Shown one piece after another: positions 24,926-30,990 of a stretch of 32,947 nucleotides of DNA. Source of the DNA: a virus; UHGV virus genome UHGV-0038968; one strand, 5' to 3'. Numbering within the stretch: position 1 is the stretch's first letter; the number at the start of each line of letters is the position of its first letter. The notes beneath the pieces are model-generated. The model saw only the letters and a program-made list of their open reading frames with translations. It ran no database searches and was not told where the DNA came from. The position numbers and the translations under genes are program-made.

Positions 24926-25301
24926 CCGCCGTTTTCTCGTACTTACTGATAGTGATCTCGACCTTCCCTTCCGGGATAACCGGTCCCCACTCCACCAGCA
25001 TTCTTTTCACCTGACTGTCGTCTTCCCACACACCCGCGTGGGTCAGGGCGTCAAACAGCGCCTTGTTATAGTTGTCCAGATCGCGGATCCGGTTATCCGG
25101 AGGAAACAACACGATCTCCACTGAAGCAGGTGCCGACGTTGGTTTTGGCAGACGACGTAACTGCTCAACTATTGCTGCACACGCCGCGCTCTGGAATTTG
25201 CGCCCCGCCGCGCTTATCAGGCTCTTACCTGCAAACGCCCCTTGGTTGGGGTGTCGCCAGTACGTGTTCACGCTGGGCGGAAAAGGCAGTATTAGCTTCA
25301 T
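24912..25301 (-). CDS. rusA: Holliday junction resolvase RusA
   Basis: 129 aa; N-terminus MKLILPFPPSVNTYWRH characteristic of RusA. Confidence 0.85.
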   Translation of the reverse strand: MKLILPFPPSVNTYWRHPNQGAFAGKSLISAAGRKFQSAACAAIVEQLRRLPKPTSAPASVEIVLFPPDNRIRDLDNYNKALFDALTHAGVWEDDSQVKRMLVEWGPVIPEGKVEITISKYEKTAGAAA

Positions 25302-27166: not shown

Positions 27167-27995
27167 GACGATGCCCTCCGCTGATATTCAGGAGACGGTG
27201 AATATGAAAATTAGCCTTATCCGCCAGACGAATACGTTCAGCTTGCAAGTTAAGAAGGGTTTCTACCAGAACCTGATGTGCCTGCGGATCCGAAAGAGTT
27301 ACCTTGCGCAGAGCACGTAGTGCAGTTGTTACATAACTGAGTTTATGTAAGTCTTCATCATTCAGACGAGTGAGGGCTGGGACAGTAGCCATGATGGCAG
27401 CCTCCTTGATCGGTGAAATACTTCCACCACCGGAAACGCCAATTTCGCTGGTGGTGAACTGAACGGGGTTGGCGTAACCGGTGATCAAGGAAACCGGCGC
27501 ATCTTTCGATGCCCCCGCCCAGCCCACCATAACTTTGATGTGAGCAAATGCGGACGATAAAAAAGACGCTGGCGCGTCATATATCGCCTTGATCAATTCC
27601 AGGACGCCAATCCCGGCACCCGCTTTATAAGGTGCCTGAACAGTGTAACGTCCCGGAATGGCAGAATCAATGTGCTGGTGGTCCTTCACACTCAACAAAA
27701 TCACGCCTGAATTTCCACAAAGGGCTAAAGCACTCATGCGGGTAGTCTTTGCGAAGATAGATAACGCGCTGTGTTTCTGACTCCCAACGAATAACATGAA
27801 CATAAAGTCCTCTTCCGTCACGAAACCAGCGGTTAAGTTCCTGCACAACTCGCCCCCCACAGTCAGGTAAAGTTCTCTGTGGTTACTTACAGCCAGGAGA
27901 TTTGGTAATCTGCATTCATGCCGTAACAACACGTGTTCAGCGACGCTGACCACCAGCTGTTGCGACAAACGGTTATTTGCCGTTAAACTGTTCAT
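27159..27995 (-). CDS. Hypothetical protein (278 aa), unknown function, early-right operon
   Basis: Long ORF tightly packed between the CII/YdaT-like gene and the small ORF; no motif recognised (no Walker A). Confidence 0.55.
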   Translation of the reverse strand: MNSLTANNRLSQQLVVSVAEHVLLRHECRLPNLLAVSNHRELYLTVGGELCRNLTAGFVTEEDFMFMLFVGSQKHSALSIFAKTTRMSALALCGNSGVILLSVKDHQHIDSAIPGRYTVQAPYKAGAGIGVLELIKAIYDAPASFLSSAFAHIKVMVGWAGASKDAPVSLITGYANPVQFTTSEIGVSGGGSISPIKEAAIMATVPALTRLNDEDLHKLSYVTTALRALRKVTLSDPQAHQVLVETLLNLQAERIRLADKANFHIHRLLNISGGHRHA

Positions 27996-28883: not shown

Positions 28884-29558
28884 ATGAAAACAATCCATGA
28901 CATCCGGCGGTCTAACGCCAGAAAATTGAGAGATGGTGTTGGCGGGAATTCTTCCTTTGCCACTATGATTGATCGCGAGCCAACCCAGACCAGCAGGTTT
29001 ATGGGAGATGGTGCTACTAAAAATATCGGTGACAGCATGGCACGACACATCGAAAAATGTTTCGACCTGCCTGTCGGATGGCTCGATCAAGAACACCAGA
29101 CAACGAACATCACAAAAAAACCTGATGTTTCAATCACTAATAAACAAATCACATTAGTCCCTGTCATATCATGGGTACAGGCCGGAGCATGGAAAGAAGT
29201 TGGATATTCTGAGGTTGATTTGAGCACAGCAGAAACGTATCCCTGCCCTGTACCCTGTGGGGAAATGACTTATATCTTGCGGGTGATAGGTGATTCAATG
29301 ATTGATGAGTACCGCCCGGGAGACATGATTTTTGTCGATCCTGAAGTACCTGCCTGCCACGGTGACGACGTTATTGCATTGATGCACGATACAGGCGAAA
29401 CCACCTTCAAAAGGTTGATAGAAGATGGGACACAGCGTTATCTCAAAGCGTTAAACCCAAACTGGCCTGAGCCTTACATTAAGATCAACGGTAATTGCTC
29501 TATAATTGGTACAGTGATTTTCTCAGGAAAACCAAGAAGATACAAAATCAAAGCCTAA
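28884..29558 (+). CDS. CI-type repressor with C-terminal LexA-like S24 autopeptidase domain
   Basis: 224 aa; N-terminal HTH region, C-terminal VIGDSM (Ser) and TTFKRL (Lys) motifs of S24 peptidases; divergent from cro. Confidence 0.85.
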   Translation: MKTIHDIRRSNARKLRDGVGGNSSFATMIDREPTQTSRFMGDGATKNIGDSMARHIEKCFDLPVGWLDQEHQTTNITKKPDVSITNKQITLVPVISWVQAGAWKEVGYSEVDLSTAETYPCPVPCGEMTYILRVIGDSMIDEYRPGDMIFVDPEVPACHGDDVIALMHDTGETTFKRLIEDGTQRYLKALNPNWPEPYIKINGNCSIIGTVIFSGKPRRYKIKA

Positions 29559-29572
29559 TCAATGTTTATGAA

Positions 29573-29593
29573 CCTGCTTCGGCAGGTTTTTTT
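29573..29593 (+). terminator. Intrinsic terminator after the repressor gene
   Basis: CCTGC-TTCG-GCAGG followed by TTTTTTT. Confidence 0.7.
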
Positions 29594-29597
29594 ATAC

Positions 29598-29631
29598 TTG
29601 ACAATGTACCTTTGGGATACATAATGTACCC
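29598..29631 (+). promoter_or_regulatory. pL-like promoter with overlapping operator
   Basis: TTGACA (29598-29603), 16-17-nt spacer, CATAAT/ATAATG; palindrome ATGTACC-TTTGG-GATACAT (29604-29622) of the same form as the right operator, plus another ATGTACC at 29624-29630. Confidence 0.6.
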
Positions 29632-29751
29632 AAGCGAAACAACGAACAGGCAGGACGCCCACGAAGTAGCCGCCTGGGGCATATGAAGTCCAGGATGATT
29701 CGTTGAGTCATGTTGTGCCACTAGGCACTCATGTTAAAGCAGGTGTATGAA

Positions 29752-30027
29752 ATGAAAGTCCAGATTTTAAACAATAACTGTGAAGTCGTTTGGTCATACG
29801 ACATAGCCGCCCCTGTAGATCAGAGCGGCGATAGCTGGACCAATGGGAAACATCAGATTATGGCTGGAGTTGTGTTCTCTTTACGCCGTGCTTTGGAACA
29901 GGCTGAAGTATTTCCATCAGACCCTGAATGGAAATGGCCTTTTTCTATTTGTCCAAATTCGGAGAGCACATTTCAGAAAATTGGTCAGAAAGTCGCACTC
30001 GAAGAGCATCAGCCAACTGTTTCCTGA
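29752..30027 (+). CDS. Hypothetical protein (91 aa), first gene of the leftward early operon; not N-like
   Basis: Start at MKVQ with AGGTG 6 nt upstream (track ORF begins 29731 without SD); no Arg-rich motif. Confidence 0.5.
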   Translation: MKVQILNNNCEVVWSYDIAAPVDQSGDSWTNGKHQIMAGVVFSLRRALEQAEVFPSDPEWKWPFSICPNSESTFQKIGQKVALEEHQPTVS

Positions 30028-30190
30028 TTTTTTCAGGTAACTCGTCGGCATCGCAGAAACAACAACGCTCGATCATGTTGAAAGCCGATTCGTAGAACTG
30101 TTTCTGCTGAGTGTCGCTGAGACAGGAAAAGAGCGACGTTACGATGATTTTATTAATTGCATTATCAAGTTCTTTTTCATCAAAAGTCAT
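29945..30190 (-). CDS. Hypothetical protein (81 aa), convergent and 3'-overlapping with the previous gene
   Basis: AAGGAAA 6 nt upstream of the ATG; overlaps 29945-30027 with the plus-strand ORF, so one of the two may be spurious. Confidence 0.4.
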   Translation of the reverse strand: MTFDEKELDNAINKIIVTSLFSCLSDTQQKQFYESAFNMIERCCFCDADELPEKIRKQLADALRVRLSDQFSEMCSPNLDK

Positions 30191-30445
30191 TTGATTTTCC
30201 TTTTATGTATACGGGCTTAAAAGGATACCACCGAGCCTGAAGTGGTGAAAAGACAGGCACATAACAGCTAAGTATTTTCAACCAGAGAGAATCCTTAGCG
30301 TTGTGGTGAATGCGGCTCAGCGCACGCGGGTTAAGGTTGAGGCTGACAGTCGACCTTCTGTGGATACCCACCCGTCTGGTGTGCAACCTTCGCCAGGCAC
30401 CGGGAGGCACCCGGCACCACAACTTTATGCTGTGTGTAGTCCTGG

Positions 30446-30490
30446 CGGTACCAGTTTGTACCCTTGCTTCCGGCTGGTACCGTCCTTTTT
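30446..30490 (+). terminator. Intrinsic terminator-like hairpin in the GC-rich non-coding region
   Basis: CGGTACCAG (30446-30454) pairs with CTGGTACCG (30474-30482), 19-nt loop, then TCCTTTTT. Confidence 0.5.
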
Positions 30491-30579
30491 ACAAAACAGA
30501 GAAGAGCATCACCGGACGACGGGCTCATAACCCAATCCATCCGGGCGGCTGCTACCGCAGGTGTTCTTCTCTGTTTTGT
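30491..30579. repeat. 15-bp perfect inverted repeat with 59-bp spacer, upstream of the yfdP-like gene
   Basis: ACAAAACAGAGAAGA (30491-30505) and TCTTCTCTGTTTTGT (30565-30579). Confidence 0.5.
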
Positions 30580-30627
30580 GGAGAAACTAATCGGCCTTGC
30601 AGGGTCGATATGATGAGGAGCAGCAAA

Positions 30628-30990
30628 ATGGCTAGCGAACGCAGTACTGATGTGCAGGCATTTATCGGGGAGCTGGACGGCGGCGTATTTGAAACCAAAA
30701 TCGGCGCAGTTCTCAGTGAAGTCGCTTCCGGTGTGATGAACACGAAAACCAAAGGTAAGGTCTCACTCAACCTGGAAATCGAACCATTTGATGAGAACCG
30801 TGTGAAAATCAAACACAAACTCTCATATGTTCGCCCGACTAACCGCGGGAAAATTTCCGAAGAAGACACCACCGAAACGCCGATGTATGTCAATCGCGGT
30901 GGTCGCCTGACTATTCTGCAGGAAGACCAGGGACAATTACTGACTCTTGCCGGTGAACCTGACGGAAAACTCCGCGCAGCAGGTCATTAA
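30628..30990 (+). CDS. yfdP: YfdP-like hypothetical protein
   Basis: 120 aa from MASERSTDVQ with GAGGAG upstream; the track's N-terminal extension from 30310 looks non-coding; size and order match CPS-53 yfdP. Confidence 0.55.
   Translation: MASERSTDVQAFIGELDGGVFETKIGAVLSEVASGVMNTKTKGKVSLNLEIEPFDENRVKIKHKLSYVRPTNRGKISEEDTTETPMYVNRGGRLTILQEDQGQLLTLAGEPDGKLRAAGH

Follow-up and report, generated by a model that had tools for sequence, protein, structure and literature searches.

When two promoters face each other and their transcripts overlap, the stronger unit silences the weaker, as in the excludons of Listeria, at pR/pL of coliphage 186 and in lambda oop-cII, and in phages this convergent layout keeps lytic and lysogenic expression apart. 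Directly downstream of the repressor, lambdoid phages also carry lysogen-active genes such as rex and sieB. The ymfI-ymfJ pair of e14 in Escherichia coli K-12 has been assigned as a convergent excludon from RNA sequencing data (PMC12288877), and ymfJ is induced late in the SOS response (PMC11002266), as expected of a cI-controlled gene. Here we describe a convergent gene pair immediately downstream of the cI repressor gene in the virus genome UHGV-0038968, of which one strand of 32,947 nucleotides (nt) was analysed (the window). The pair consists of a plus-strand gene for a protein of 91 amino acids (aa) and a minus-strand gene for one of 81 aa, whose coding sequences overlap at their 3′ ends (Table 1). 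Conservation in diverged relatives indicates that both are genuine protein-coding genes, and they are inherited as a single portable cassette. We favour, with moderate confidence, a reading in which this mobile cassette joins a gene expressed in the lysogen (minus) to a gene expressed on induction (plus), the two being made mutually exclusive by convergent transcription; both the promoter activity and the exclusivity are what we infer.

Both open reading frames are protein-coding genes

An earlier reading made from the letters alone (the sequence-only reading) had placed a 91-aa open reading frame (ORF) on the plus strand and an 81-aa ORF with a good ribosome-binding site on the minus strand directly after the cI terminator and a pL-like promoter, with an overlap of 83 nt at their 3′ ends, and all of these features are present in the window. 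It had offered two explanations: either one ORF is spurious, or the two form a genuine convergent, antisense-overlapping pair. The second is borne out by coding-type conservation on both strands and by the joint movement of the two genes as one block.

Word-based protein searches returned nearly only near-identical E. coli proteins and their frameshift variants. A diverged homologue of the plus protein (P0040) led to contig L009, which carries counterparts of both ORFs with approximately 60% amino-acid identity in the same convergent arrangement, behind a different repressor. Searching exhaustively with the minus protein, and by profile with the plus family, added further clades: L174–L177 (P0051), L178–L180 (P0053, P0065), the Salmonella loci L184/L185 (P0067) and L186 (P0063). 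The diverged homologues of the plus gene are P0040 and P0059–P0067. Complete copies of seven diverged clades have both ORFs open.

The alignment of the window with L009 is gap-free from start codon to start codon over 439 nt. The plus-only part has 61 differences, distributed over plus codon positions as 17, 7 and 37 (chi-square p about 1e-5); the 48 of the minus-only part are distributed over minus codon positions as 14, 4 and 30 (p about 2e-5). Every other frame contains stop codons in these non-overlapping stretches, which make up about 70% of each ORF. The sequence-only reading had proposed comparing synonymous (pS) and non-synonymous (pN) change in relatives, and nine between-clade comparisons of the non-overlapping parts among the window, L009, L098, L174 and L178 gave pS values of 0.70–0.93 versus pN values of 0.18–0.34 for codons 1–64 of the plus gene, and 0.72–0.91 versus 0.18–0.37 for codons 1–54 of the minus gene, which is to say saturated synonymous change (0.7–0.9) versus pN values of 0.18–0.37 in each frame. 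Within the overlap, both frames have a lowered synonymous rate, which fits dual coding. Both ORFs occur in every one of the 167 retrieved copies, the minus ORF always intact and the plus ORF frameshifted in three. Coding conservation is thus seen on both strands rather than on one, and on this evidence from sequence comparison we conclude that both ORFs are real and neither is spurious.

Nor does the region align to a known characterised gene. Both ORFs match PHROG profiles over their full length, the plus gene PHROG 3195 (E 6e-70, profile positions 1–98 of 98) and the minus gene PHROG 3311 (E 1e-55, positions 1–81 of 81), and both profiles are labelled "unknown function". Pfam, NCBIfam, PADLOC and PDB profile searches gave no usable match for either family, and literature searches for the protein accessions and PHROG identifiers found nothing. 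Both proteins are acidic and hydrophilic, with isoelectric points (pI) of 4.95 for the plus protein, which has 7 Arg + Lys in 91 residues and the N-terminus MKVQILNNNCEVVW, and 4.56 for the minus protein; the grand average of hydropathy (GRAVY) is about −0.4 and there is no membrane-spanning segment. A CCxC motif in the minus protein is not kept in distant homologues. AlphaFold2 predicted, at low confidence, three helices for the minus protein (single sequence) and a β-hairpin followed by two helices for the plus protein (12-sequence alignment), with mean predicted local distance difference test values (57.9 and 54.4, respectively) too low for a fold search.

The stretch from 29500 to 30650 of this SfV-like E. 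coli/Shigella prophage is 99% identical to Shigella phage SfV, and of 5,426 complete E. coli genomes 363 contain almost all of it, the cassette along with the flanks. In the SfV record the plus ORF is annotated as orf33 ("unknown") and the minus ORF is left unannotated. PGAP usually calls the 91-aa plus ORF and omits the minus gene in most records; the minus ORF is called instead in phage vB_EcoM-720R4 and by PGAP in E. coli strain G5. The finding that both small ORFs are real therefore corrects current annotation, in which the minus gene is omitted and a neighbouring small RNA (sRNA) is translated as a "frameshifted" protein or as ymfH in PGAP and EcoCyc-style records.

A portable cassette of constant length

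The distance from start codon to start codon is exactly 439 nt, with zero insertions or deletions, in seven diverged clades that share 57–67% nucleotide identity; the module again has this length, with both ORFs open, in each of the added clades. For the plus gene this distance is counted from the ATG at 29752, which is kept in all clades together with the preceding Shine–Dalgarno sequence and gives 91 aa. The frame itself is open further upstream, from 29731, which is the start used for SfV orf33 (98 aa), and the ATG at that position is not conserved in relatives.

The 3′ ends are less constant. The plus ORF ends after 91, 93, 107 or 122 codons and the minus ORF after 74–81, and the overlap, found in every clade, spans 74–161 nt where both ends were read. 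The conserved protein cores end at plus residue E84 and minus residue M74, and so share about 35 nt (~29969–30003). Several clades extend the plus ORF to 122 aa (homologues P0040, P0059–P0064 and P0066; L009 3001–3369 and others). The extra tail is fairly conserved, which is probably no more than the antisense of the conserved minus gene. Gene callers choose this long plus ORF and miss the minus gene, with the consequence that the minus family is under-represented in protein databases.

An exhaustive search of 1.84 billion representatives with the minus protein gave only 19 matches, and a one-genome-per-species scan found no relatives of it; the minus family is narrow and enterobacterial. In most phages the pair stands after cI/pL, as it does in the window. 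In L178–L180 it lies beside the holin and lysozyme genes of the lysis cassette, downstream of a Fic/Phd pair, with an overlap of 110 nt. At the Salmonella locus it comes after a repressor gene and an HSDR_N gene and before kilR and gam, and in L174 it is inserted between pL and the leader RNA described below, not after the leader. In E. coli G5 it is stacked behind an SfII-type cassette and the right-hand flank is duplicated. The two genes co-occur and move jointly, and the pair is thus one portable 439-nt convergent cassette.

Three distant homologues of the minus protein (P0055, P0056 and P0058; 38–41% identity) have no plus partner. The genes for P0056 and P0058 stand between those for the Q antiterminator and the holin and point against the late operon; P0055 comes from two short contigs only. 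An apparent plus-ORF homologue in SfII with 41% identity was rejected, since the tblastn match reads through a stop and all that SfII retains is a remnant of the first 21 codons. This remnant of plus codons 1–21 (MKVQILNNNCEVVWA, then stop) was observed in SfII (L004 1594–1662) and in E. coli G5 (L172 2057–2103), in each case ahead of an unrelated SfII-type cassette. Its position suggests that cassettes have been swapped by recombination within the 5′ end of the plus gene.

Table 1. Features of the gene pair and its flanks, in window coordinates.
Feature	Position	Strand	Basis
Plus gene, 91 aa (SfV orf33, PHROG 3195), first gene of the pL transcript	29752–30027	+	Conserved start and Shine–Dalgarno sequence
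Minus gene, 81 aa (PHROG 3311)	30190–29945	−	AAGGAAA 6–7 nt before ATG
3′–3′ coding overlap, 83 nt	29945–30027	both	ORF coordinates
pL-like promoter driving the plus gene	29598–29625	+	TTGACA-16-CATAAT, 11/12 matches, scan
Promoter-like element of the minus gene, sigma-70-like	30249–30222	−	−35 TTCACC (30249–30244), 16-nt spacer, −10 TATCCT (30227–30222)
cI repressor	28884–29558		Peptidase_S24 match
Intrinsic terminator of the cI transcript (left boundary)	29570–29597	+	8-bp stem and T-run, terminator scan
Structured 5′ leader RNA of the pL transcript, 72 nt (conserved flank of the slot, outside the mobile pair)	29637–29708	+	Covariation
STnc100/PasD-like sRNA gene with terminator (right-hand conserved flank)	30270–30492	+	Rfam RF02076

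Expression signals and a proposed mode of expression

The plus gene lacks its own promoter, and its ORF comes first on the transcript from pL. The pL element carries tgtacc operator-like repeats that are also seen at pR, and in e14 an identical pL promoter precedes ymfJ. The minus gene is preceded by a promoter-like element with the consensus −35 TT(C/A)ACC, a spacer of 15–17 nt and −10 TA...T; transcription from this putative promoter would give a short 5′ untranslated region (UTR) of about 25 nt. The motif TTNMCM-N15-17-TANNNT ends 31–35 nt before the minus ATG in 11 of 12 upstream regions, as compared with 0.25% of shuffles, and is common to all paired clades, two solitary minus homologues and unrelated minus-strand genes (e14 ymfI, SfII_36 and Kati CDS4). 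Embedded in the element is an inverted repeat, ACCAC...GTGGT (30227–30246), the loop length of which differs between clades; in L186 it takes the compensatory form ACCGC...GCGGT (one compensatory change).

Only two plus-strand terminators were found, that of cI (hairpin and T-run at 29570–29589; the SfV record has a putative terminator annotated at the same site) and a hairpin followed by U5 within 30444–30492. The latter hairpin (30444–30484; −23.2 kcal/mol, z −3.0) belongs to the STnc100-like stretch and is the first plus-strand terminator after pL, scanning and folding having revealed none between 29590 and this position. Transcription from pL must therefore cross the whole minus gene and its putative promoter in the antisense direction before reaching ~30490.

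Three other candidate terminators were rejected. The "putative rho-independent terminator" annotated in SfV (record positions 25034–25066, window 30178–30210, plus strand) is AT-rich, was missed by the terminator scan and coincides with the Shine–Dalgarno sequence and start codon of the minus gene. A minus-strand hairpin at 30246–30227 is the inverted repeat of the promoter-like element and its T-tract is not conserved, and a second at 29662–29646 is weak and is the complement of the leader RNA; we claim neither as a terminator.

In the reading we favour, pL would be repressed by cI in the lysogen and would fire on induction or infection, the plus gene then being read first. The minus gene would be expressed in the lysogen, in the manner of a moron, from its putative sigma-70-type promoter, which lies in the conserved right flank and points against pL. 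Transcripts from pL would run antisense over the minus gene and its promoter, and those of the minus gene would enter the plus gene in antisense; expression of the two would then be likely to become mutually exclusive, as in an excludon, by way of transcriptional interference and antisense pairing. The minus protein would accordingly be a product of the prophage state, and the plus protein would be made in lytic development, when the minus gene would be shut off. Strict co-inheritance points to a shared process for the two products; the plus protein might, for instance, counteract or replace the minus protein once the phage itself turns lytic. The sequence-only reading had raised the possibility that the overlap couples expression of the two genes, and such coupling would follow from the anatomy of the locus and from the analogous e14 pair. 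Two further observations are consistent with this reading. The solitary minus homologues lie antisense in the Q-to-holin region of accessory genes, and in the prophage population the minus gene appears to be under stronger purifying selection than the plus gene: polymorphism in the SfV-type clade comprises 8 synonymous and 3 non-synonymous changes in the minus-only part versus 8 and 14 in the plus-only part, and all three frameshifts are in the plus gene.

Several points weigh against it. The polymorphism contrast is not significant (Fisher p = 0.07). The promoter-like motif was defined post hoc, after the sequences had been seen, and a standard promoter scan of the window did not flag it; the compensatory change in its inverted repeat means that the element could have another role, as an RNA hairpin or a regulator binding site. 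Distant minus homologues occur without a plus partner, and the plus protein is thus not obligatory for the minus gene. The overlap may simply reflect compaction, and neither the profile searches nor the low-confidence models revealed what either protein binds or does.

Alternative explanations

The alternative that takes compaction at face value holds that both genes are real and that their overlap is without regulatory meaning, being the outcome of tail-to-tail packing and drifting stops in a compact phage genome. The stops are indeed not conserved, hence the varying overlap length, beyond the conserved cores the tails resemble run-on sequence, and minus-family homologues exist on their own. 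However, even the conserved cores overlap by ~35 nt in all clades, and the convergent order has been kept through approximately 40% nucleotide divergence and at least two relocations. With no terminator between the genes, convergent transcription is unavoidable if both promoters fire, and the analogous e14 pair does have overlapping transcripts (PMC12288877). We therefore consider this explanation unlikely.

A more elaborate version of the favoured reading is a two-protein toggle between lysogeny and lytic growth, in which the minus protein would be a prophage effector (for example in superinfection exclusion or abortion, or in host modulation) and the plus protein a dedicated antagonist, made only from pL, that would spare the phage's own lytic cycle. 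We regard this version as rather doubtful. If true, it would represent a design of defence plus self-immunity unlike known ones such as BstA/aba, with the overlap hard-wiring exclusivity.

The sequence-only reading had named a toxin and its regulator as an example of what such a pair might encode. An addiction module or kill-switch of the toxin–antitoxin (TA) kind, in which, for example, the plus protein would be harmful and its partner would neutralise it as a protein or as an antisense transcript, would fit the strict co-inheritance of the unit in seven clades, a 3′–3′ overlap that has the type I geometry of txpA/RatA, and the restriction of frameshifts to the plus gene, as might be expected for a costly gene. 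Against this, both partners are conserved proteins, which means that neither is solely a non-coding type I antitoxin RNA, and neither is a small hydrophobic peptide, given the GRAVY value and the lack of a membrane-spanning segment noted above. The genes face each other and are not co-transcribed as those of a type II operon with a DNA-binding antitoxin and a toxin fold would be, and Pfam, NCBIfam and PADLOC searches found no helix-turn-helix and no known toxin or antitoxin domain in either protein. The minus family also occurs alone. The idea is somewhat disfavoured by these features of the sequences, and we judge it improbable.

That the plus ORF is a functional equivalent of lambda N, acting on the leader as an antiterminator, is very improbable. 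It does stand where N would, first after pL and behind a structured leader, and a strong terminator (30444–30492) would have to be passed before yfdP, xis and int. However, the protein is acidic, with few basic residues and no arginine-rich N-terminus of the RNA-binding kind that characterises N proteins, and the nut sites (boxA with a boxB hairpin) expected after both pL and pR in the N system are lacking. No boxA was found near pL, or after it up to the plus ORF, and boxA-like matches in the window are at chance level. Phages with the same leader carry unrelated first genes (e14 ymfJ, SfII and Kati ORFs, and a ClpX-zinc-finger protein), and in L174, L178 and L186 there is no leader upstream of the plus gene. 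The statement in the sequence-only reading that no recognisable N antiterminator is present thus stands.

Finally, the notion that one ORF is a chance open frame antisense to the other, which draws on the habit of annotators to call only one of them (the plus ORF in SfV and most PGAP records, the minus ORF in 720R4 and by PGAP in G5), is refuted by the third-position bias and low pN/pS of the ~70% of each ORF that lies outside the other, and by the persistence of both frames across the seven clades at 57–67% nucleotide identity.

The slot, its flanking RNAs and other cassettes

In the window, the pair occupies a slot (29626–30270) that is bounded by two conserved RNA elements. The left-hand element is the 72-nt leader of the pL transcript. 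In 40 distinct sequences it forms two 5-base-pair helices with many compensatory changes and 88% of cells paired, with a covariation score of 0.721 versus 0.179 in shuffles (none of 500 as high) and at most 0.161 when the partners were slid. Its invariant core is AGGCAGGACGCCCACGAAGUAGC, and the covariance model scores 93 bits in the window. The leader is present in approximately 49 phage records from Escherichia, Salmonella, Klebsiella, Yersinia, Pantoea, Pectobacterium, Citrobacter and Providencia, once per phage and not on the pR side. None of these records annotates it as a feature and it has no Rfam family; it seems to be undescribed. Identity with the put-type RNA of HK022 was considered and rejected, the covariance model being without a match in HK022. 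One guess is that the leader might help pL transcripts to pass the terminator at ~30490.

The right-hand element matches Rfam RF02076 over model positions 1–206 of 206 with E 9e-8, at 41.2 bits versus a gathering threshold of 47, and is here called STnc100-like; STnc100/PasD are prophage-borne sRNAs (bioRxiv 10.64898/2026.05.13.724894). Both ymfH of e14 and a PGAP "frameshifted hypothetical protein" (30303–30613) are translations of this stretch and are probably mis-annotations. On the pR side, two minus-strand stretches of the operon (27447–27534 and 27559–27635) gave Rfam matches above gathering scores to the C4 antisense RNA (82 bits) and the Hfq-binding sRNA IsrK (64 bits), respectively, inside or beside the SfV "immunity region" orf37/ash gene.

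Comparison of loci L003, L004, L005, L171, L172, L188, L211, L226, L255, L262 and L268 showed the interval from the leader to the STnc100-like block to be a mosaic hot spot, with at least a dozen different inserts of 320–2750 nt. In most of these, a minus-strand gene of 63–212 aa comes after one or several small genes on the plus strand, and the face-to-face arrangement recurs: e14 ymfJ/ymfI overlap by 63 nt, an SfII pair by 39 nt and Kati CDS3/CDS4 by 29 nt. In the cassettes inspected, the minus-strand gene was also preceded by the promoter-like block (e14 ymfI and SfII_36, and as a variant in Kati). By hhalign, neither the SfII pair nor e14 ymfJ has a detectable relation to the pair studied here (YmfJ probability 0.03%). 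The genes of the slot cassettes gave no match to known defence families, and the sole usable match in profile searches of the alternative cassettes was a ClpX zinc finger in a small plus-strand protein. This 73-aa protein, with a ClpX-type C4 zinc finger (PF06689, E 1e-10), is encoded at L172 1826–2047, in L238 and at approximately 30 similar loci, often as the first gene after the leader and ahead of the pair studied here; as a possible phage mimic of the ClpX N-domain it might interfere with substrate recognition by ClpX. A 164-aa protein of L188 has two hydrophobic segments and by eye recalls SieB.

The SfV/e14-type slot is thus a site at which interchangeable cassettes, repeatedly of face-to-face layout, are held between two conserved RNA elements. 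Were the minus protein to act in exclusion or host modulation and to have an antagonist expressed from pL, the remaining cassettes of the slot would become candidates of the same kind.

Comparison with known systems

The pair is a real, conserved and uncharacterised example of two kinds of element that are already known, the prophage accessory cassette and the excludon-like pair, and its architecture is notably rigid at 439 nt. Being compact and genetically tractable, it offers a model in which to ask whether overlap between convergent genes serves to separate lysogenic from lytic accessory expression.

The e14 pair ymfJ/ymfI resembles it most directly in setting. It stands in the same slot downstream of the cI-like YmfK, is likewise convergent with a 3′ overlap, and is identically flanked, by the pL promoter and the leader RNA on one side and by the promoter-like block and the STnc100-like stretch (there called "ymfH") on the other. 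In contrast, the YmfJ and YmfI proteins are not homologous to those studied here, and as they are also uncharacterised, the analogy is uninformative on function.

As in the excludons, at 186 pR/pL and in oop-cII (for excludons and convergent-promoter interference, see PMC12288877 and PMC5001618), the two genes face each other and their transcripts are predicted to overlap, with 83 nt of shared coding sequence and no plus-strand terminator before 30444. The overlap here extends beyond UTRs into the conserved coding sequence of both proteins. The pair also differs from those systems in being a portable accessory cassette rather than the core lysis–lysogeny switch.

The minus gene further resembles morons such as lambda bor and Rac sieB, which is convergent with ydaF (sieB-ydaF is also listed among convergent excludons; PMC12288877). 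It is small and is directed against the surrounding operon, and its presence varies between phages that are otherwise collinear, in hot spots for accessory genes, after cI/pL, where the slot inserts vary, and between Q and holin, where its homologues occur. The putative promoter, if active, would add to the likeness. No similarity to Bor, SieB or any PADLOC defence protein was found. A classical moron is a single gene, whereas here a second gene of opposite orientation is co-inherited. With the type I TA systems of Bacillus subtilis prophages, txpA/RatA and bsrG/SR4, the pair shares convergent genes with overlapping 3′ ends within prophages; there, a non-coding RNA antitoxin opposes a short hydrophobic toxin, whereas here both partners evolve as proteins and are conserved, soluble and acidic.

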